Shown: positions 17,202-46,384 of the stretch, in pieces
Numbering within the stretch: position 1 is the first letter of the stretch
Layout of the letters: each line of letters opens with the position of its first letter
Assembly: GCA_947471505.1 (NCBI GenBank)
Contig: CANIWM010000012.1
Coordinates: forward strand, 15,867-79,866
Source of the DNA: Chthoniobacteraceae bacterium
GTDB lineage: Bacteria; Verrucomicrobiota; Verrucomicrobiia; Chthoniobacterales; Chthoniobacteraceae
Direction: 5' to 3'
DNA: 64,000 nt
The notes under the pieces: model-generated
What the model was told of the DNA's origin: nothing
The model's database searches: none
The model's input: only the letters and a program-made list of their open reading frames with translations
Position numbers and translations under genes: made by a program

Positions 17202-18014
17202 GTGCGCTTTTCCATCGTCACACCAAGTCTCCGGCAGCTCGATTGGCTCCGCCTTTGCGTCCGCTCAATCGAGGATCAGGCTGTGGAAAAGGAGCATTTC
17301 ATCGAAGACGGCGGCACTGGCCCCGAGCTGGAGGAATGGGTGCGCGGCCAGACGAAGGCGCAGCTTTTTGTCGAGCAAGACGGCGGCATCTACGATGCGC
17401 TCAACCGTGGCTTTGCGCGAGCCACCGGCGATGTGCTGGCGTGGCTGAACTGCGATGAACAATACCTCCCCGGCGCGCTCGCCGCCGTCGCCGCCGAGTT
17501 CGCGGCGCGGCCCGAGCTCGATGTCCTCCTTGCGGATAATCTCATCGTGGACAACACCGGCAGCTACCTCGCGCACCGCTTCTCGCTCATCCCCGAAGCC
17601 AGCCAATGCTGGTGGCGATTCCCCGTATCGAGTTGCGCCCTCTTTTTCCGCCGCCGCGTCTGGCAGCCTTTCGACACGCAGTGGAAGTCCTCCGGCGACT
17701 GGTGGTGGTTCATGGCGATGCTCCAGCGCGGGGCGAAAGTGGGCGTCCTCCGCCGCTTCGTCGCCACCTTCGGCGAGACGGGCGAAAACCTCGGACTCTC
17801 CCCCATCACCGCCACCGAGCACGCCGCCATCGCCGCCGCCCGTCCTTTGTGGGCGCGAGTTCTCGCCCCCGCCATCCTCATCCGCCACAAAGCCCGGATG
17901 CTCGCCTCGGGTGCCCATCGCGTAGAGCCTTTCGACTACCAAGTTTTCACCCGGACCAGCCCTAGCCGCCAGACGTTTCACGTAAAAAACCCCACCGCCA
18001 ACTGGCGGGCGTGA
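17202..18014 (+). CDS. glycosyltransferase family 2 protein
   Basis: N-terminal GT2 motif (FSIVTPSLRQLDWL...IEDGGTGP, DALNRG, and the D-x-D-like NCDEQY). Confidence 0.7.
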   Translation: MRFSIVTPSLRQLDWLRLCVRSIEDQAVEKEHFIEDGGTGPELEEWVRGQTKAQLFVEQDGGIYDALNRGFARATGDVLAWLNCDEQYLPGALAAVAAEFAARPELDVLLADNLIVDNTGSYLAHRFSLIPEASQCWWRFPVSSCALFFRRRVWQPFDTQWKSSGDWWWFMAMLQRGAKVGVLRRFVATFGETGENLGLSPITATEHAAIAAARPLWARVLAPAILIRHKARMLASGAHRVEPFDYQVFTRTSPSRQTFHVKNPTANWRA

Positions 18015-18190
18015 TTAAAACACGGTCCAAATGCCGCGAAGCGGAAAGTAGCTCGCGAGTCCCATCGCGGCCCTATGACTCCCGCGAAGCGGCACTTCTT
18101 CATTCGTGAGGCTTCGCCGTCGCAAAACGCCGCGAAGGGACTCGCGAGCTACTCTCTTGGATCACGTTTTGATCACGCCGCCAACTGGCG
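17995..18190. mobile_element. MITE/REP-like palindromic element (~170 bp) flanked by exact 13-bp direct repeats CCGCCAACTGGCG
   Basis: Direct repeats sit at 17995-18007 (the last codons of the GT2 gene) and 18178-18190. The interior has imperfect terminal inverted repeats (GCGTGATTAAAACACG / CGTGTTTTGATCACG), a 16-bp internal inverted repeat (GTAGCTCGCGAGTCCC at 18048-18063 and GGGACTCGCGAGCTAC at 18138-18153) and two exact CCGCGAAGCGG mini-hairpins plus a related CCGCGAAGGG motif. Confidence 0.5.
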
Positions 18191-18269: not shown

Positions 18270-18788
18270 CTAATCCGCCTTTTTAGCAGGCTTCGCGTCT
18301 TCTTTCTTCGCGGGTTTAGCATCGTCCTTCTTTTCTGCTTTTGGGCCGAACTTCGTGATCTTCACCACTTCATATTCGGTGCCGTCTGCATTCTTCTTGG
18401 TGCGGAGGCCAGCGACGGTGTCGCCAGCCTTGATGTCCTCGAACTTCGCAGCAGCGTCACCGTTTTTGATCTCGGTGGTCGCCGTCACGATATGTTTCAC
18501 GAGTTTGCCTTCCTTAGTTTTCTGTGTGAACGACTTCCCAGCAGCATCGATCTCGTCGGCGCGGGCGTTCATGGGTTGAGGCTTGGCGGCCTTCGCGTCG
18601 TCTTTCTTCGCGTCAGCGGCAGGAGCAGCGGCAGGAGCGTCGTCCTTCTTTGCATCAGCGGCTGGAGCAGCAGGAGCGGCTGGCGCTGCGGCTGGTTTAG
18701 CGGCTTCTTTTTTCTTCGCTTGCGCGAATGCGGAAGGCCCGACTGAGAGAGCGAGGCCGAGTGTGAGACTGAACAGGATTTGTTTCAT
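18270..18788 (-). CDS. secreted low-complexity Ala/Pro/Lys-rich protein
   Basis: Clear signal peptide MKQILFSLTLGLALSVGPSAFAQA, followed by repeats (KKDDAPAAAPAADAKKDDAKAAKP), then a small globular region. Own terminator downstream. Confidence 0.65.
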   Translation of the reverse strand: MKQILFSLTLGLALSVGPSAFAQAKKKEAAKPAAAPAAPAAPAADAKKDDAPAAAPAADAKKDDAKAAKPQPMNARADEIDAAGKSFTQKTKEGKLVKHIVTATTEIKNGDAAAKFEDIKAGDTVAGLRTKKNADGTEYEVVKITKFGPKAEKKDDAKPAKKEDAKPAKKAD

Positions 18789-19222
18789 GGGTTTGTTTGT
18801 TTGTTGTTTTGTGAGGCGCGCCAGCAGGCCCGGAGAGGGCGCTAATCTCGCGCCCGTCCGCTCTAGTCCCCGGTTTTTGGTGGGTCAAGCGAGAATCATC
18901 ACCGCGCACCGCATTTTTCCGCGGGCGATTCTCAGGGTTGCCGCCGCAGCGCCCCGATCCGATCCACCATCCTGGCAACAGTTGTTATCACCCCCCATTT
19001 ACGCCGAAGGCGTTGGGGTTCGGAAGGCTGAACCCTCCGGGTAAGAATCACGCTCATTGAGCGAGATTGGAAATCTCGCCTCCTCTGCGCTCGATTGCGC
19101 GGGCTATCCACATACGGCGGCCCCTCTACTTCACGGCATTTGTCCACTTTACCCTCCCGCTCTCTGTTAGCCGGCCGTGGAACGTCCTTGTTCCACGGAG
19201 AAATGGGCTTTTTCTCTGATGG

Positions 19223-19255
19223 CATATACTCATTCCGTCACAGAATGAGTATATG
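19223..19255. promoter_or_regulatory. perfect 13-7-13 palindrome CATATACTCATTC-N7-GAATGAGTATATG (candidate operator)
   Basis: Read directly from the sequence. The half-site GAATGAGT(A/T)T is the core of the downstream direct-repeat array. Confidence 0.5.
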
Positions 19256-19537
19256 CGGGGGCGGAATCTGTTTAATCTGCGAGTGGATGGGTTTAGGGCA
19301 GGATGGAATCTGCTTTGGCTGCGGCAGGATGAGTTTAACCTGCGAGGGGATGAGTTTAGGGCGGGATGAAATCTGTTTTGGCTGCGACAGGATGAGTTTA
19401 GAATCCGACGGAATCCATTTAGCCGCCAATCGAATGAGTTTAGGAAACGAGGGAATGAATTACGGAGGGAAACTCATGGGTATATTTTGCAACGGAATGA
19501 ACTGCATTTCCGGCGGAATGGGTTGTAAAGTAGTGCG
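19256..19537. repeat. array of about 13 degenerate direct repeats with ~21-bp period (core GGATGAGTTTAGG / GAATGNNTTTA)
   Basis: Includes two 63-bp higher-order copies at about 90% identity (19277-19339 and 19340-19402), each made of three 21-bp subunits. Located in an ~890-bp intergenic region between divergent genes. Confidence 0.7.
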
Positions 19538-19608
19538 AATAGTAGCGGGGCCGTCTCGGCCCCGAGCGACACTGTGTGTCGCAGGGGGCGGGACGCACCC
19601 TCTACTTC
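19538..19608. repeat. GC-rich multi-hairpin module (AATAGTAGCGGGGCCGTCTCGGCCCC...), copy 1 of 2 in this window
   Basis: Contains the hairpin GGGGCCG-TCT-CGGCCCC and the palindrome GCGAC...GTCGC. Copy 2 at 43958-44043 shares 26 of 27 nt (one extra C in copy 2) over 43958-43984. Confidence 0.6.
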
Positions 19609-19678
19609 CGCGCATTATTTTACCGCTCACCGCGCGCCGAGCGTGCAACGCGCAACTTCTTCCGGTAGGAGGCGGGGC

Positions 19679-20641
19679 ATGAAACTCATCGCGTCCGTCT
19701 TTTTCGCCACGACTTGCCTCGCTACTGCGCTGGATGCGCCCAAGTTTGACCGTAATGGGGCAGGGGAGATCACGGTGGCGGCACCGGAGGGTGCGCACGT
19801 TCGCTATACGATTGATGGGTCTGCGCCGGGGGCGAAATCAGGACCGTATCTCGCGCCTATTCGGCTCGCGACGGGCCGGAAGGTGCAGGCGGTTTCTGTG
19901 AGCGCGGACCGGAAGACGGTGAGCGAGCCCGCTGTGCTGGAGGTCGCGCCTGCGCCGGATGCGAAGCCGCTCCCTTCGACGCTGGTGCCTTGCACGCAGG
20001 ACCGGGATTTCCCCACTTACGATTGGGCGATCCGCCATGCGCAGGTGACGGAACTTACGGCGAAGAAGAAGGCGTCGCTGGTGTTCATCGGCGATAGCAT
20101 CACGCAGATGTTCGGCGGCGAACCGCATGATCGCGGGCAGCCGGGGAAGGCGGTGTGGGAGAAATTCTACGGGGCGCGCAATGCGACGAACTTGGGCTTT
20201 GGCTACGACTACGTGGAGAACACGCTGTGGCGTCTCCAGCACGGCGAGCTGGACGGCGCAGCGGCGAAGGCGGTGGTGGTGAACATCGGGACGAACAACA
20301 TGGGCAAGAATTCGCCGGAGGAAATCTTCGAGGGCGTGAAGGCGGTGCTCGGCGAAGTGCGGCGCAGTCAGCCAGCGGCGAAGGTGCTGCTCCTCGGCAT
20401 CTACCCACGCGGCGCGAAACCCGACGCGACCCGCGAGAAGGTGGCGAAGACCAACGTGCTACTTGCGACGCTCGACGGGAAAGACGGCGTCATTTTCCAA
20501 GATGTGACGGCGAAGCTCTTGGAGCCGGATGGGAGTATCTCGAAGGAGATGATGGGCGACTTTCTGCACCCCACGGCGAAGGGCTATGAGGTCATTGCAG
20601 ACGCGATCGAGCCTACGCTGAAGAAGCTGCTGGGGGAGTAG
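19679..20641 (+). CDS. SGNH/GDSL hydrolase family protein with N-terminal chitobiase/hexosaminidase C-terminal-like (CHB_HEX_C) domain
   Basis: Signal peptide MKLIASVFFATTCLATA, CHB_HEX_C-like stretch (HVRYTIDGSAP), GDSxT block (VFIGDSITQ) and a C-terminal DFLHPT block. Confidence 0.8.
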   Translation: MKLIASVFFATTCLATALDAPKFDRNGAGEITVAAPEGAHVRYTIDGSAPGAKSGPYLAPIRLATGRKVQAVSVSADRKTVSEPAVLEVAPAPDAKPLPSTLVPCTQDRDFPTYDWAIRHAQVTELTAKKKASLVFIGDSITQMFGGEPHDRGQPGKAVWEKFYGARNATNLGFGYDYVENTLWRLQHGELDGAAAKAVVVNIGTNNMGKNSPEEIFEGVKAVLGEVRRSQPAAKVLLLGIYPRGAKPDATREKVAKTNVLLATLDGKDGVIFQDVTAKLLEPDGSISKEMMGDFLHPTAKGYEVIADAIEPTLKKLLGE

Positions 20642-20644
20642 GGC

Positions 20645-20764
20645 GGGGCATTTGTGATTGGTGATTGGTGAATGGTGATTTGTCGCAAGCGCGCTTTTCG
20701 AGGGGCGTGAGAACCCGCTTGCGACTAATCACAAATCACAAATCACCAATCACGCGCACGCCCC
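20645..20764. repeat. 120-bp imperfect palindrome containing tandem GTGATTG-type heptamers; fills the intergenic space between convergent genes
   Basis: Left arm GGGGCATTTGTGATTGGTGATTGGTGAATGGTGATTTGTCGCAAGCG, 24-nt spacer, right arm CGCTTGCGACTAATCACAAATCACAAATCACCAATCACGCGCACGCCCC. Each arm carries four heptamer repeats. The element spans from stop codon to stop codon. Confidence 0.55.
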
Positions 20765-37612: not shown

Positions 37613-38274
37613 GCAGGGCCGCCGCGCCGTTGTCCAGCCATGCGGCGGGAAAACGAACTTCCATGCCAGCGGCGCCCATTATTCGATGGCCCATACGATT
37701 CCGCTTGTAGCTGTGTGCGCGAGGACGATGATTCGCGTTGCCAAAGTCGCGTTTCTTCCACAAGGCGCGACACGGGGGACCCAATTGAGGGTGCGCAGGT
37801 CCAAACTGCCACCAGGGGCGCAGGTAGCCAGCCAAATGGCTGCCCGGTGACTTCCTTCACCGAGCCCGTCAGCTAACTCCGTCGGTATAGGGAAGGTGTC
37901 CTAGGGACGCCGTCCGCGGCACTCGCTGCGTACGGGGTCAACCGATGCCTGCAACATCATATTGCTTACTGGCATCGGCGGAAAAATACGCCGGCGGTGT
38001 CCGTTCGCGCACAGACACATACTACATACAGAAAATGAGACATCATCGTCGTGGCCTGCTTGCCGCAGGCTTCATCATCGCCGCATCCACCGCCGACACC
38101 GTTTGGCTTGCATGGGCACAACCTCAAATCGCTACCGGCCTCGCGCTGGATCAGGTCAACGGCGGAGCGCCTGCGTGGCGCGAGCTTCTCGCGTGGCAGG
38201 CGACTCATCAATGGCCGCACTTTGTTGCGCAGGCCGTTGTCGCTGCCACTATTGCGTGGTGGATTCGTCCTATC

Positions 38275-42169: not shown

Positions 42170-45100
42170 ATGGCGCATCGCGTGGATTGTCCCGCCATGC
42201 TCCGTCAAACACTCCTCGCCGTCACACTCGTCACAACGTCCGCCCTTGCGCAAAAGGCGGACCCTTTTGCCGAGGGCGTGCGGACTACAGAGCCGCTGGC
42301 ACCTGCTGAGCAGCGGGCGAAATTCAAGCTGCCGCCGGGCTTTGAGATTCAGCTCGTCGCTGCGGAGCCGGATTTGCGCAAGCCGATGAATATGGCCTTC
42401 GACGCCACGGGGCGGCTGTGGGTGTCGGAGTCGCGCGAGTATCCTTTCCCCGCGAAGGAAGGTGCGGAGTTGCGCGATAGCATCCGCATTTTCTCGGACT
42501 TCGGGCCGGATGGCAAAGCGCGGAAGATGGAGGTCTTTGCCGACAAACTGAACATCCCCATCGGGCTCTATCCATTTCGCACGGCGGATGGTCATTGGAA
42601 GTGTGTCGCGTGGGCGATTCCGAATATCTGGCTCCTGGAAGACACCGACGGCGACGGCAAAGCCGACAAACGCGAAGTGCTCTTCGGCCCGCTCGGCTGG
42701 GAGCGCGATACGCACGGCAACCAGGCGAGTTTCCGGCGCGGGGATGACGGGTGGATTTACGCCACGCACGGCTTTAACAACAACTCGATCATCAAAGCGC
42801 GCGACGGCTCCACCATCACGCTCAACAGCGGCAATGTGTATCGCTTCCGCCTCGATGGCTCGCGCGTGGAGCAATGGACCTCGGGGCAGGTCAATCCCTT
42901 CGGACTCTGCTGGGATGATCGCGGCAATTTGTTCTCCGCCGACTGCCACAGCTCGCCGATTTACCAGCTCTTGCGCGGCGGCGTGTATCCCAGCTTTGGC
43001 AAGCCGCACGACGGCCTCGGCTTCGCCCCGCAGACCATCCAGCACTCGCACGGAAGCACCGCGATTTGCGGGCCGATGATGATTCGCGACACGTCGTGGC
43101 CCGCCGATTTGCAGGGCCACATGCTCATTGGAAATGTGATGACCTCCCGGCTCAATCACGACCTCATCGAGTGGCACGGCTCGTCGTCGAAAGGCAAAGA
43201 GATGCCTGATTTCCTCACGAGCGAAGACCCGTGGTTCCGCCCCGTGGACCTGCAATGGGGCCCCGACGGCGCGCTCTACATCGCCGATTTCTATAACCGC
43301 ATCATCGGCCACTACGAAGTCCCGCTCACGCACCCCGGACGCGACCGGGAGCGGGGGAGGATTTGGCGGGTGGTGTATAAAGGGAAAGAGGGGAAAGGCA
43401 CGGCGCAATCCGGCAGCGGCAATATGATATCCGAGGGTATTATTTCTGAATCCGGCGATGCGAATCCTCAATCCGGGGACGTGAATGTTAAACCCGGCAA
43501 CGTGAATGTTAAGTCCGGCAATGCGAATGTTATAAACGGCGCGAATGTCGGTAAACAATGGTATGCGAATGTTAAATCCGGCAATGCGAATATCCAATCC
43601 GGGAACGCCAATATTAAACAGTTGGACGCGAATCCTGAACCCGGCGTGTATAATTTTAAACAGTTGAGCGTGAATATTCAATCCGGCGACTCCACTTCTG
43701 AACCTGAAAACGCTCAATTTGAACCTGAAACCTCTGTCGGTCAGAGAATCATATCGCTCTCGGAAGGCGATATAGGAGCGGGGCTTTCCCAAGCCCCGTA
43801 TGCGCCGAAGGTGCATCCAAAAGCGTCGCCTACTCTGTTGCGGTTCGTTTTAGGGAACCCCTCCGGGGCTCACGGGGCTTTGGAAAGCCCCGCTCCTATA
43901 CGCCCGTCCGGCGAATTGGCGCTGCACCTCATCGCCACGACGCCGGAGCCTGCGCCCAATAGTAGCGGGGCCGTCTCGGCCCCCGACTGCGACCCTGCGG
44001 GTCGCAGTGCTACGAGCCTTGGGGCCGGGACGGCCCCACTACTTTCGCCCTCGATGAGTGTCGCGCTGGCCACTTCGCTGCCGAAGGAGGAACAGATCGC
44101 CGCTTTGATAAAAGAACTCGGCTCGCCGAACCCGACGCGGCGGTCGCTGGCGTTGAATGAATTGTGTGATCGGTGGCCAGACGAAGCGCGAAAAGTGATC
44201 CCAGCGTCGGTTGATGCAGATCCGTTTCAGCGTGCGAATCTACTGTGGGTCATCAACCGCGGGGGACGCAATATGCCTGGTAATACGGGAATTATCGCCA
44301 GACGTGCCGAGCACCCTATGGTCCGCAGCCAGATGTTGCGGGTGGACGCGGAGGCGCTTGCCTCGTGGAAACCGGAACTCAAAAATGCACTCGCAAAAGG
44401 TGCTCCGAAAGAAGAGTGGCAGAAGCTTTCGGGCCTTATCTTTGGAAGACTCTCGGAGCTTCAGCGCGCCTTGGAAGACAGTGACGCAGTCGTTCGCCGG
44501 ATTGCCACGGAAGCACTCGCGATTTACCCGTCAGAAGGAAACTTCCTTCCCCTCCTACGTCTCCTCCGCACAACCGACAAAGCCGACGACCACCTCATCT
44601 ACTCCACCCGCGCCTCGCTGCGCGAGCATCTCCGCGATGCGGAAGTCGTGAAGCAGCTTAAGCTCGACGCTTTTTCCCGCGAAGACCTGCAAGCGATCAT
44701 GGACATCCTCCCCGCCGTCCCCGGCGAACATGCGGCGCTGCTGCGGCTCGACCTTTTTACGAAGCTCGACGCGCCCGCTGCCGAAGTCGCCAAGCACTTT
44801 CCCAGCATCATCAAAAACGCCCCCGCCGACCGGCTCAACGACATCGCCGCGCTGGCGCAAAAGAAGATGCCCGACGATGCCGCCGCGCTCTCCGCGATCC
44901 TCACCGCGCTCGACCAGCGCGGTGTGCCGCCGGGCGATGCGCTCCGCGAATGGGCGGCGGCGCTCGTCCCACGGCTGCTCGCCGCAAAGGCGGGCGGGTG
45001 GTCCATCCGGTCCATAGCGTCCATCCCGTCCACCGAAAACCCCTGGACCCTGCAAGACCGCAAGAGCGCCGATGGCGAAACCGCCCGCCTGATGAGCAGC

Positions 45101-46384
45101 TTCCCCAAAGGCGAAAAGCTCACCGGCATCCTCGCCTCTGCGCCGTTCCTCGCGCCGGAGCGCCTCCGCTTTTACCTCTGCGGCCACGATGGCACTCCGC
45201 CGGGACCGGTGGGCAAAAAGAACAGCGTCCGCCTTGTGGATGCAGCCAGCGGTGCCGTGCTCCGCGAAGCCGCGCCGCCGCGCAACGATGTGGCCCAGCG
45301 CATCGAGTGGGATTTGGCCGACATCAAAGGGCGGTGCGTCCTTTTCGAGGCGACGGATGGCGACCCCGGCAGTGCGTATGCGTGGCTGGCGTTTGGCCGC
45401 TTCAAGCCCGAGTTGCCGGAACTCGCGCTGGGGGAAGCCGCCTCGCAAAAAGCCACCGCCGCCGACATCGCAGGACGCTTCAAACTCACAGCGCGTCACG
45501 ATGCGATCCTAGCGCTGTTCAATGAGCGGACGGCGGACGTGGAATCGCGCGCGGCTGCGGCGCGGGCGCTGATTTCGTTTCAAGATGATGCTGCCGTGAA
45601 AGGGCAAATCGCCACAGCCCTCGCCAGCGCCGACGAGCCCGACGCTCTGCGCGAAAAACTCGCCGTCGCACTCAGCGGCGTCGCCAGCCAAGCCGTCGCC
45701 AATGCGATGCCCTCTGCCTCCACGAAGCTCCAGCAATCTTTCTCTGCCGCGCTTTCTGCAAATCGCGAAGGCACTGTTGCGCTTATCGTTGCAGTCGAGA
45801 GCGGCAAAGCCTCCCCGCTCGTCCTGCGCGACAAAGCGACGGTGGATCGCCTCAAAGCCAACGCGAAAGACGACGAGCTAAAACGCCTCGAAGCCCTGCT
45901 CGCCAAACTCCCGCCCGCGAACATCGAAGCCGACAAACTCATCGCCGCACGCCGCACCGCTTTCACAAAAGGCGACGCCGCGAAAGGCGCGGTCGTTTTC
46001 ACAACGAACTGCGCCGTCTGCCACCAGATCGGGCAGAAGGGCAACCTCGTCGGCCCGCAACTCGACGGCATCGGCGGGCGAGGGCTCGACCGCATTTTGG
46101 AAGACCTCCTCGACCCGAATCGCAACGTGGACCGCGCATTCCGCCTCAGCATCGTCACGCTCAAAGACGGCGGCGTAGCCAGCGGACTCCTGCGCCGCGA
46201 GGAAGGCGGGCAGATGGTCCTCGCCGACATCACCGGAAAGGAAAGCAGCATCCCGCAAGCGAACGTCGCCAAGCGCGAAGAGAGCGACACCTCGCTGATG
46301 CCGCCCGCATTCGGCCAGACGATCCCGCCCGCAGACTTCAACGATCTGCTCGCATACCTGCTCTCACAGCGCCCGACAAAGTAG
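42170..46384 (+). CDS. PVC-type membrane-bound dehydrogenase domain / HEAT-repeat / CxxCH cytochrome c protein (1404 aa) carrying an in-frame repeat-element insertion
   Basis: N-terminal signal, a beta-propeller-like dehydrogenase domain (DATGRLWVSE, GRIWRVVYKG), a central low-complexity insert (43405-44043), HEAT-like repeats, and a C-terminal heme motif CAVCH with conserved downstream Met. Confidence 0.8.
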   Translation: MAHRVDCPAMLRQTLLAVTLVTTSALAQKADPFAEGVRTTEPLAPAEQRAKFKLPPGFEIQLVAAEPDLRKPMNMAFDATGRLWVSESREYPFPAKEGAELRDSIRIFSDFGPDGKARKMEVFADKLNIPIGLYPFRTADGHWKCVAWAIPNIWLLEDTDGDGKADKREVLFGPLGWERDTHGNQASFRRGDDGWIYATHGFNNNSIIKARDGSTITLNSGNVYRFRLDGSRVEQWTSGQVNPFGLCWDDRGNLFSADCHSSPIYQLLRGGVYPSFGKPHDGLGFAPQTIQHSHGSTAICGPMMIRDTSWPADLQGHMLIGNVMTSRLNHDLIEWHGSSSKGKEMPDFLTSEDPWFRPVDLQWGPDGALYIADFYNRIIGHYEVPLTHPGRDRERGRIWRVVYKGKEGKGTAQSGSGNMISEGIISESGDANPQSGDVNVKPGNVNVKSGNANVINGANVGKQWYANVKSGNANIQSGNANIKQLDANPEPGVYNFKQLSVNIQSGDSTSEPENAQFEPETSVGQRIISLSEGDIGAGLSQAPYAPKVHPKASPTLLRFVLGNPSGAHGALESPAPIRPSGELALHLIATTPEPAPNSSGAVSAPDCDPAGRSATSLGAGTAPLLSPSMSVALATSLPKEEQIAALIKELGSPNPTRRSLALNELCDRWPDEARKVIPASVDADPFQRANLLWVINRGGRNMPGNTGIIARRAEHPMVRSQMLRVDAEALASWKPELKNALAKGAPKEEWQKLSGLIFGRLSELQRALEDSDAVVRRIATEALAIYPSEGNFLPLLRLLRTTDKADDHLIYSTRASLREHLRDAEVVKQLKLDAFSREDLQAIMDILPAVPGEHAALLRLDLFTKLDAPAAEVAKHFPSIIKNAPADRLNDIAALAQKKMPDDAAALSAILTALDQRGVPPGDALREWAAALVPRLLAAKAGGWSIRSIASIPSTENPWTLQDRKSADGETARLMSSFPKGEKLTGILASAPFLAPERLRFYLCGHDGTPPGPVGKKNSVRLVDAASGAVLREAAPPRNDVAQRIEWDLADIKGRCVLFEATDGDPGSAYAWLAFGRFKPELPELALGEAASQKATAADIAGRFKLTARHDAILALFNERTADVESRAAAARALISFQDDAAVKGQIATALASADEPDALREKLAVALSGVASQAVANAMPSASTKLQQSFSAALSANREGTVALIVAVESGKASPLVLRDKATVDRLKANAKDDELKRLEALLAKLPPANIEADKLIAARRTAFTKGDAAKGAVVFTTNCAVCHQIGQKGNLVGPQLDGIGGRGLDRILEDLLDPNRNVDRAFRLSIVTLKDGGVASGLLRREEGGQMVLADITGKESSIPQANVAKREESDTSLMPPAFGQTIPPADFNDLLAYLLSQRPTK
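43405..43735. repeat. tandem 21-nt repeats (GAATGTTAAATCCGGCAATGC family) encoding SG(N/D)ANV(K/Q) heptads inside the 42170..46384 CDS
   Basis: About 12 degenerate 21-nt units. Locally AT-rich compared with the flanking sequence. The period is a multiple of 3, so the host reading frame is preserved. Confidence 0.6.
43958..44043. repeat. GC-rich multi-hairpin module, copy 2 of 2 (inside the CDS)
   Basis: AATAGTAGCGGGGCCGTCTCGGCCCC shared with 19538-19563 (26 of 27 nt). Contains hairpins GGGGCCG-TCT-CGGCCCC and GCGACCC-TGC-GGGTCGC. The outer stem is AGTAGCGGGGCCGTC / GACGGCCCCACTACT. Confidence 0.6.

Follow-up and report, generated by a model that had tools for sequence, protein, structure and literature searches.

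The GC-rich module that occurs twice in the stretch of DNA analysed here (64,000 nucleotides, hereafter the window) is very probably an inverted, head-to-head dimer of a GTAG-tagged REP, with the GTAG tags outermost, and a non-autonomous element of the REPIN/BIME kind. The family is dispersed among Verrucomicrobiaceae, and the tandem array of ~21-nt units that accompanies each window copy belongs, in all likelihood, to a separate class of repeats.

Architecture and fold of the two modules

The repeating unit consists of AGTAG, one base, a GC stem of 7-8 bp, a TCY triloop and the complementary stem. Two inverted units flank one or two extra small hairpins. In the window, these elements were located as follows.

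19541..19563 (+): copy 1, 5' REP unit, AGTAG-C-GGGGCCG-TCT-CGGCCCC; GTAG tag, 7-bp stem and triloop
19566..19582 (+): copy 1, central hairpin, GCGACAC-TGT-GTGTCGC; compensatory relative to copy 2 and other family members
19584..19605 (-): copy 1, inverted 3' REP unit, GTAG-A-GGGTGCG-TCC-CGCCCCC; one stem mismatch
19519..19629 (+): copy 1, full palindromic element comprising the dimer and its outer arms
43958..44050 (+): copy 2, with REP units at 43961-43983 (+) and 44021-44043 (-) and a central GTAG-tagged hairpin at 43987-44013 (-)

A preliminary description of this DNA had reported a module present twice with a shared 26-mer. The 26-mer, AATAGTAGCGGGGCCGTCTCGGCCCC, was found exactly at 19538-19563 and 43958-43983, twice in the window, and had no match in 100 shuffles. 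From the 26-mer to the terminal ...CTACTT, the two modules could be aligned over ~85 nt (68 nt in copy 1 and 86 nt in copy 2). Both begin with the hairpin GGGGCCG-TCT-CGGCCCC. The second palindrome reported, GCGAC...GTCGC, is likewise present in both: the central hairpin is GCGACAC-TGT-GTGTCGC in copy 1 and GCGACCC-TGC-GGGTCGC in copy 2, the two differing by a compensatory A-T to C-G change. The third hairpin, GGGGGCG-GGA-CGCACCC in copy 1 and GGGGCCG-GGA-CGGCCCC in copy 2, is followed by N-CTAC in each case. Together with CTAC, it is the reverse complement of the first unit, and GGGGCCGTCTCGGCCCC matched on the minus strand at 44021-44037. The closing segment that had been described as complementary to the opening is this inverted 3' copy of the 5' unit, GGGGCCGGGACGGCCCCACTACT in copy 2 and, with one mismatch, GGGGGCGGGACGCACCCTCTAC in copy 1.

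Calculated with RNA parameters and compared with shuffles, the folding energy was -71.5 kcal/mol for copy 1 (z = -8.0) and -69.4 kcal/mol for copy 2 (z = -7.4). In the minimum-energy fold, the 5' and 3' units pair with each other to give one long hairpin, with the central hairpin at its tip. In copy 1, the fold reaches outward, the outer arms at 19519-19540 and 19606-19629 pairing around the dimer, so that this copy is larger than originally delimited. The proposed three-stem structure held in part: each unit's own hairpin is conserved by covariation, as described below, but the best fold is the single long hairpin and not a three-way cloverleaf. Rfam searches of both loci, at gathering and permissive thresholds, returned no relevant match, only sub-threshold noise of the miRNA-hairpin type, and an ARAGORN search of both for tRNA and tmRNA genes found nothing. 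A promoter and terminator scan of the intergenic region around copy 1 detected no site at the array or the module, and no U-tract.

Dispersal and covariation of the family

We scanned one genome per GTDB species for exact matches to a 23-nt pattern of the 5' unit, AGTAGNGGGGCCGTCNCGGCCCC. The scan returned 44 loci, 43 of them in Verrucomicrobiaceae MAGs: 14 in GFS_3520, 10 in OTE_70_metabat_418, nine in GFS_12560, six in GL117_UP_concoct_203, three in a Prosthecobacter debontii MAG and one in OTE_58. The MAGs with 14, 10, nine and six loci are incomplete assemblies. The single match in Streptomyces is probably due to chance. Many matches lay at contig ends, as expected of repeats. The window, which covers its own genome to the extent of 64 kb, contributed two full copies and one truncated copy. 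The suggestion of a dispersed family resembling REPs, BIMEs or MITEs was therefore borne out, the family extending well beyond the two copies in the window. An exact-pattern scan of metagenomes gave no match; a degenerate pattern gave eight, which are other GTAG REPs or chance matches, with no RAYT gene nearby.

Approximately 25 full dimers were recovered, and the architecture was alike at almost all loci. The spacers vary from 20 to 85 nt, hold one or two hairpins (GCGACAC..GTGTCGC and GCGCC-TTCG-GGCGC) and are followed by the inverted 3' unit, which terminates in CTAC. Copy 1 belongs to the commonest sub-family, as a member in which the GCGCC hairpin has been lost. Outer terminal inverted repeats are present in two sub-families, as AATTCTACTTTGTT...AACAAAGTAGAATT in one and as CTCATACCATCNTCCACAAATAAAGAGACGG with its reverse complement in the other. 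Most copies lie outside long ORFs, and they occur in both orientations; of the two window copies, the first is upstream of a gene and the second within one. Elements of the sub-families with outer repeats were found in near-identical form on different contigs of the same MAG, in GFS_3520 and in GFS_12560, and for this reason they look recently mobile.

The 3' partner units had not been selected by the search pattern, and structure could thus be tested on them without bias. Of the cells in 18 distinct partner units, 93% were paired, compared with 40-59% in slid registers. Double-sided changes occurred at three of the eight pairs (15 cells): C-G/A-U/G-C at the closing pair, G-C/A-U, and C-G/G-C. 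None of 500 shuffles matched this covariation, and the GTAG tag was invariant in all 18 units. The variants GGGGGCG/CGCCCCC and GGGGACCG/CGGTCCCC are self-complementary, yet mismatched in the inter-unit helix. As such variants keep their own pairing while breaking the helix between units, the individual hairpin is the conserved object.

Three loci from three species (L020 1172-1194, L025 139-161 and L037 1544-1566) carry a single exact REP unit within a well-conserved ORF of ~900 aa, where it encodes ...NTYGAETAPLLA.... Either a REP became fixed within this gene long ago, or the coding sequence imitates one.

Copy 1 upstream of a GDSL-lipase gene

Copy 1 lies within an 890-nt region between divergent genes, the relevant features of which are given below.

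18270-18788 (-): gene for a secreted Lys/Ala-rich protein, on one side of the intergenic region
19107..19154 (+): truncated third copy of the family, ...CGGCCCC-T-CTAC followed by the conserved right flank TTCACGGCATTTGTCCACTTTACCC
19255..19540 (+): array of ~13 units of 21 nt with the core GRATGAGTTTAG, non-coding; its final unit and the element's left outer arm overlap
19679..20641 (+): GDSL-lipase/CHB_HEX_C gene, its start codon following the copy-1 dimer at a distance of 73 nt

REPs are usually found 3' of genes; copy 1 is instead in a divergent promoter region. The orthologous GDSL gene at locus L028 has an upstream region of 65 nt that contains neither the element nor the array nor the rest of the block, indicating that the whole copy-1 block is lineage-specific. 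The truncated copy and the right end of the dimer at L029 share 97% identity. Eight contigs from different samples and sources (NCBI, ENA and Logan) were 99.8-100% identical over the copy-1 region, and the number of array units was constant at this strain level.

Both array and dimer are covered by a 195-codon ORF at 19095-19682 (+). It ends in an ATGA overlap with the GDSL start codon and was predicted by one gene caller (L055, 2-481). As a real gene, it was rejected: judged by eye, its GC3 is ~50%, with rare TTA, ATA and GTA codons, while the flanking genes have a GC3 of 78-80%. Codon usage read in this way suggests that the ORF is spurious.

Several smaller features were observed at this locus. 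A perfect 14-bp hairpin at 19222-19256, GCATATACTCATTC-CGTCACA-GAATGAGTATATGC, has a 3' arm similar to the opening unit of the copy-1 array; in L003, too, an array is succeeded by an inverted one. The motif GGCTATCCACA(T/C)A is fused to truncated REP units at window positions 19102-19120 and at L032 4290, L034 689 and L043 1098. It includes the DnaA-box-like CTATCCACA, which is probably a coincidence. Thirteen nt past the GDSL stop codon, at 20654-20753, a hairpin has 38-nt arms made of heptamer runs, (ATTGGTG)n and (AATCACA)n; it may be described as a terminator-like structure built of 7-nt repeats.

Copy 2 as an in-frame insertion in a protein linker

Copy 2 lies inside a gene that also contains an array and a second palindromic element.

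42197..46384 (+): host gene of copy 2, encoding a 1395-aa PVC-type heme-binding CxxCH protein with a DUF7133 domain, HEAT repeats and a cytochrome c domain
43447..43740 (+): 21-nt array of ~14 units inside the ORF, translated as heptads (SGNANVK-like)
43761..43910 (no strand assigned): I1, a 150-nt long hairpin starting GGAGCGGGGCTTTCC, of a second palindromic family, translated in frame between the array and copy 2

The 1395-aa protein was called as one gene, and an identical protein is encoded on eight contigs of the assembly collection. Copy 2 forms a 93-nt (31-codon) in-frame insert at 43958-44050 that encodes NSSGAVSAPDCDPAGRSATSLGAGTAPLLSP. According to the alignment of homologues, it lies in a hypervariable interdomain linker (43358-44099) between RIWRVVYKG and SVALxTSLPKEEQ. 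Homologues of the host protein are usually 1130-1230 aa long. In the distant homologues P0009 and P0010, the linker comprises ~5 aa; close relatives have 40-75 aa, and the window, L021 and P0005 (locus L048) have ~215-250 aa. Linkers of 741, 720, 780 and 222 nt were all multiples of three and free of stop codons. Peptides encoded by this disordered-looking linker include the SGNANVK repeats and GAVSAPDCDPAGR.

An empty site was found at L048. There, the array is present, the sequence runs from ...ACGCCCGAGTC-TGCGCTCCCG straight into ATGGCC, and exactly 93 nt are absent. A dimer occupies this exact point in the window, L030 and L021, and L049 has a degenerate dimer at the same place. Copy 2 is preceded by TGCGCCC and ends with TCGCCC, where the L048 empty site has a single TGCGCTCCCG; the pair is a possible target duplication of 6-7 bp.

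The I1 family also occurs in L011, L028, L030, L038 and L041. A further GTAG-tagged family, AAAGTAGTCAGCGACTTCAGTCGG, is present in the same linker of another species at L048 3205 and, elsewhere, at L027 3388 and L035 1022 and 1133. In total, at least three palindromic families and the 21-nt array have entered the linker across lineages (window, L021, L048 and L049). The presence of several element families in frame in one linker indicates that it is a permissive site that absorbs selfish elements.

The 21-nt tandem arrays

We surveyed tandem repeats in the window and the 44 loci (~340 kb from six Verrucomicrobiaceae genomes) using TRF and lag autocorrelation. Self-matches of at least 65% over 84 nt were found at lags of 21 (11 segments) and 42 (nine segments) and at no other lag from 9 to 45; with looser thresholds, 21 and 42 were still dominant. 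Apart from leucine-rich-repeat coding sequence with a period of 69, 21 nt (with 42 and 63) is essentially the sole tandem period in the ~340 kb. We identified ~16 independent arrays of 5-17 units, with adjacent-unit identities of 49-67% (96% in L028) and GC contents of 0.40-0.66, most of them below the genome value of 0.60. Judged by eye, GC3 in the copy-1 array is ~50%, against 78-80% in the flanking genes. The orientation of genes around the arrays is mixed, and the arrays lie outside credible genes, with the exception of that in the copy-2 linker. The latter has orthologues in L021 and L048 and has persisted in frame in the protein linker across at least three species.

The arrays do not share a sequence. 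Each has its own conserved core of 8-11 nt. Outside orthologous and within-array pairs, only two pairs of consensus sequences reached 14 matches in 21 (per-pair p = 0.002, 153 comparisons). The two window arrays, which had been described as being of one GAATG type, matched at 11-12 of 21 positions in the best cyclic alignment of their consensus sequences (shuffled-unit p ~0.07-0.2 per pair). They are therefore no more alike than shuffled units, and the GAATG class is unsupported. No sub-period of 7 or 10.5 nt was detected within the arrays, and no leader or flank is shared between them apart from the dimers. A literature search for bacterial tandem repeats of 21 bp gave no relevant result.

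Three accounts of the arrays were considered and rejected. Derivation of the units from the GTAG tail of the REP was plausible by eye, but cognate tails scored no better than shuffled ones (p = 0.17-0.61). A structured, CsrB-like sponge RNA was suggested by the numerous A(C/G)GGAUG motifs of the copy-1 array. At this GC content, however, GGA is frequent in any case; the array folded no better than shuffles (z = -1.2), and the other arrays are without the motif. The smallest k used by MEGAHIT is 21, the same as the array period. An assembly artefact is at odds with the degeneracy of the arrays, with the 99.8-100% identity of the copy-1 region in eight contigs and with the divergence in frame of orthologous arrays.

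We consider it highly likely that the arrays are an independent class of minisatellite occupying the same permissive DNA, neither part of the element nor needed by it. A bolder and rather doubtful proposal is that they are an undescribed, lineage-specific repeat class with one fixed period and no shared sequence, located preferentially beside GTAG-REP dimers. If so, the constancy of the period across differing sequences would suggest a mechanism that measures length, such as duplication tied to ssDNA or REP processing, or alternatively to selection for phasing at two helical turns, for example by a DNA-coating protein. This exclusive period of 21 nt is the part of the present results that deserves most attention.

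Association of arrays and dimers, and mechanism of dispersal

The preliminary description had treated array and module as recurring together. A single functional or mobile composite could be an sRNA gene, a protein-binding array with a structured 3' end, or an array produced by processing of the REP's GTAG end. In keeping with such a composite, a period-21 array lies on the same (5') side of the dimer in both window copies, L028 and L014, and eight of the 16 arrays have a dimer within 500 nt, 7.7 times as many as a uniform distribution would give. Relative to non-ORF DNA, however, this enrichment is only ~2-fold. In the sub-family closest to copy 1, arrays accompany two of ~10 members (L028 and L014, ~50-65 nt 5' of the element). 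Conversely, L048 has the copy-2 array and no dimer, and at L010, L016, L020 and L031 no GC hairpin is present within 450 nt of the array. The order of components also varies, from array-I1-dimer in copy 2 to array-dimer-I1 in L028. Even in the window, the array abuts copy 1 but ends ~218 nt before copy 2, with I1 in between, so that direct adjacency applies to one module only. The units resemble neither one another nor the GTAG tail of the REP, and the arrays have no common flanks besides the dimers. With most dimers lacking an array, arrays lacking dimers and a variable order, the recurring composite unit was not substantiated. Nor was the structured sRNA gene with an upstream binding array: Rfam, tRNA, promoter and terminator signals were missing, the copy-1 array RNA folds no better than shuffles by the z score given above, both orientations occur and one copy lies in an ORF. 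We regard any such composite as very improbable. Most of the association is accounted for by co-accumulation in scarce permissive DNA, to which a mechanistic link of modest weight may add, for example slippage where forks stall close to strong hairpins.

Two further explanations concern the module itself. The dimers might be MITEs moved by a DDE transposase that reads terminal inverted repeats, the GTAG hairpins being a passenger structure and the elements not being RAYT-dependent REPINs. The clear outer repeats of two sub-families (AATTCTACTTTGTT...AACAAAGTAGAATT; CTCATACCATCNTCCACAAATAAAGAGACGG) fit this explanation, as does the failure to detect a RAYT gene in the window and ~420 kb of related loci. 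Transposition by IS200-like Y1 enzymes produces no target duplication; the TGCGCCC/TCGCCC pair at copy 2, as compared with the single TGCGCTCCCG at the L048 empty site, therefore hints at a DDE-type MITE mechanism. Against this, the part that is conserved and covaries across sub-families is the GTAG hairpin, whereas the outer arms differ or are absent; no consistent target duplication was seen by eye at other members, and no transposase of any kind was identified in the sequences searched. We consider the MITE explanation unlikely. The modules could also be RNA elements selected by the host as bidirectional terminators, mRNA stabilisers or 5'-UTR regulators, and so kept for regulation rather than as selfish DNA. 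Their hairpins are very stable (-69 to -72 kcal/mol), copy 1 is 73 nt upstream of a start codon, and REPs elsewhere stabilise mRNAs (PMC3733652). Yet the module has no U-tract, the orthologous GDSL gene of L028 is without the element, presence and absence vary freely among close relatives, copy 2 is inside a coding region, and family copies occur in all gene contexts and orientations. Host selection of this kind thus appears improbable.

The preferred reading remains that of GTAG-REP dimers, the mobility of which is indicated by the L048 empty site for the 93-nt insert and by near-identical elements at separate loci. By analogy with other GTAG REPs, the hairpins would form on single-stranded DNA, where a single-copy Y1 (HUH) transposase of the RAYT type may read the hairpin and GTAG tag, excise the element and reinsert it. 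The element would have spread in this manner within Verrucomicrobiaceae and settled where tolerated: one copy in the long divergent intergenic region 5' of the GDSL gene and the other in the linker of the PVC-type heme-binding protein, where it would be translated as 31 extra residues. Once transcribed, the stable hairpin may affect mRNA stability. The REP units AGTAGCGGGGCCG would be expected to flank the cognate RAYT gene, and AGTAGCGGGGCCGTCTCGGCCCC is a candidate single-stranded RAYT substrate. In the window and ~420 kb of related sequence (~60 loci), a scan of six-frame ORFs for HUH...YxxNP detected no RAYT/Y1 gene. A tblastn search of the same sequences with a RAYT consensus as query gave no match, although this is a weak test.

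Comparison with known repeat families

Plasmid iterons are 17-22 bp long and parC repeats ~20 bp. The 21-nt arrays resemble such iteron- or centromere-like arrays in having ~10 direct repeats of about two helical turns, a conserved core with a variable remainder and, in some, a terminal unit that is inverted. No more than a resemblance is implied: the 21-nt arrays are many per chromosome, have different cores and no partner gene nearby, and one lies in an ORF.

A GTAG-tagged REP is a short palindrome with a stem of 5-13 bp and GTAG at one end. The described families include some from the PVC superphylum, in which Opitutus terrae was found to be "highly enriched" (Di Nocera, De Gregorio & Rocco 2013, PMC3733652). 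The same study reported several families per genome and head-to-head dimers in which 20-100 bp separate the units (PMC3733652). Intragenic, in-frame REPs, the dimers of which encode 20-30 residues, were most numerous in the verrucomicrobium O. terrae (PMC3733652, Additional file 3), and the inserts were argued to occupy flexible linkers (PMC3733652). As dimers of this type, including intragenic ones in Verrucomicrobia, have already been described, the module is a new family of a familiar kind. It shares with known GTAG REPs the terminal tag, a GC stem of 6-9 bp and a short loop, and the occurrence of several families per genome; most of the copies inspected here lie outside long ORFs. With GTAG REPs and REPINs, it has in common the inverted dimers with tags outside, the 20-100 bp spacers and the capacity to fold into one long hairpin. 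By contrast, the unit GGGGCCG-TCY-CGGCCCC and its hosts (uncultured Verrucomicrobiaceae and Prosthecobacter MAGs) are new, and the present family has extra internal hairpins and, in some sub-families, long outer inverted repeats. REPINs and RAYTs were described by Bertels & Rainey 2011 (PMC3116915); the present family differs from the REPIN/REPtron arrangement in that a cognate RAYT was not found in the window and the ~420 kb of loci.

Like Rickettsia palindromic elements (RPE) and the intragenic REPs of O. terrae, copy 2 is a stop-free insert of a multiple of three nucleotides in a flexible linker that leaves the gene intact. It differs in that here a single linker holds at least three palindromic families and a 21-nt array in different lineages. 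E. coli BIMEs and neisserial intergenic mosaic elements are, similarly to the present elements, intergenic mosaics of several small palindromic units in variable order. Their unit sequences are different, however; no IHF-type or other intervening motifs were identified here, and BIMEs and neisserial elements have no counterpart of the 21-nt arrays.

The module itself is of minor weight: it adds a defined family resembling GTAG REPs and REPINs for uncultured, mainly glacier-stream Verrucomicrobiaceae. Copy 2 provides an example, complete with an empty site, of a selfish palindrome absorbed in frame into a protein linker. Knowledge of the family is of use in annotation, where gene calling would otherwise yield peculiar low-complexity inserts and spurious ORFs, 19095-19682 among them, and in the assembly of MAGs, the contigs of which break at these REP repeats.

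Other features of the window

Two further features were observed in the window. An inverted dimer at 18044-18156 is also GTAG-tagged, and belongs to a different family (AGTAGCTCGCGAGTCCC ... GGGACTCGCGAGCTACT); its 28-nt arms are 93% complementary. It lies between the convergent genes at 17202-18014 (+) and 18270-18788 (-), the classic position of a REP. In addition, a c-di-AMP riboswitch of the ydaO/yuaA type is present at 37729-37902 (+), scoring 48.5 bits against a gathering score of 38.
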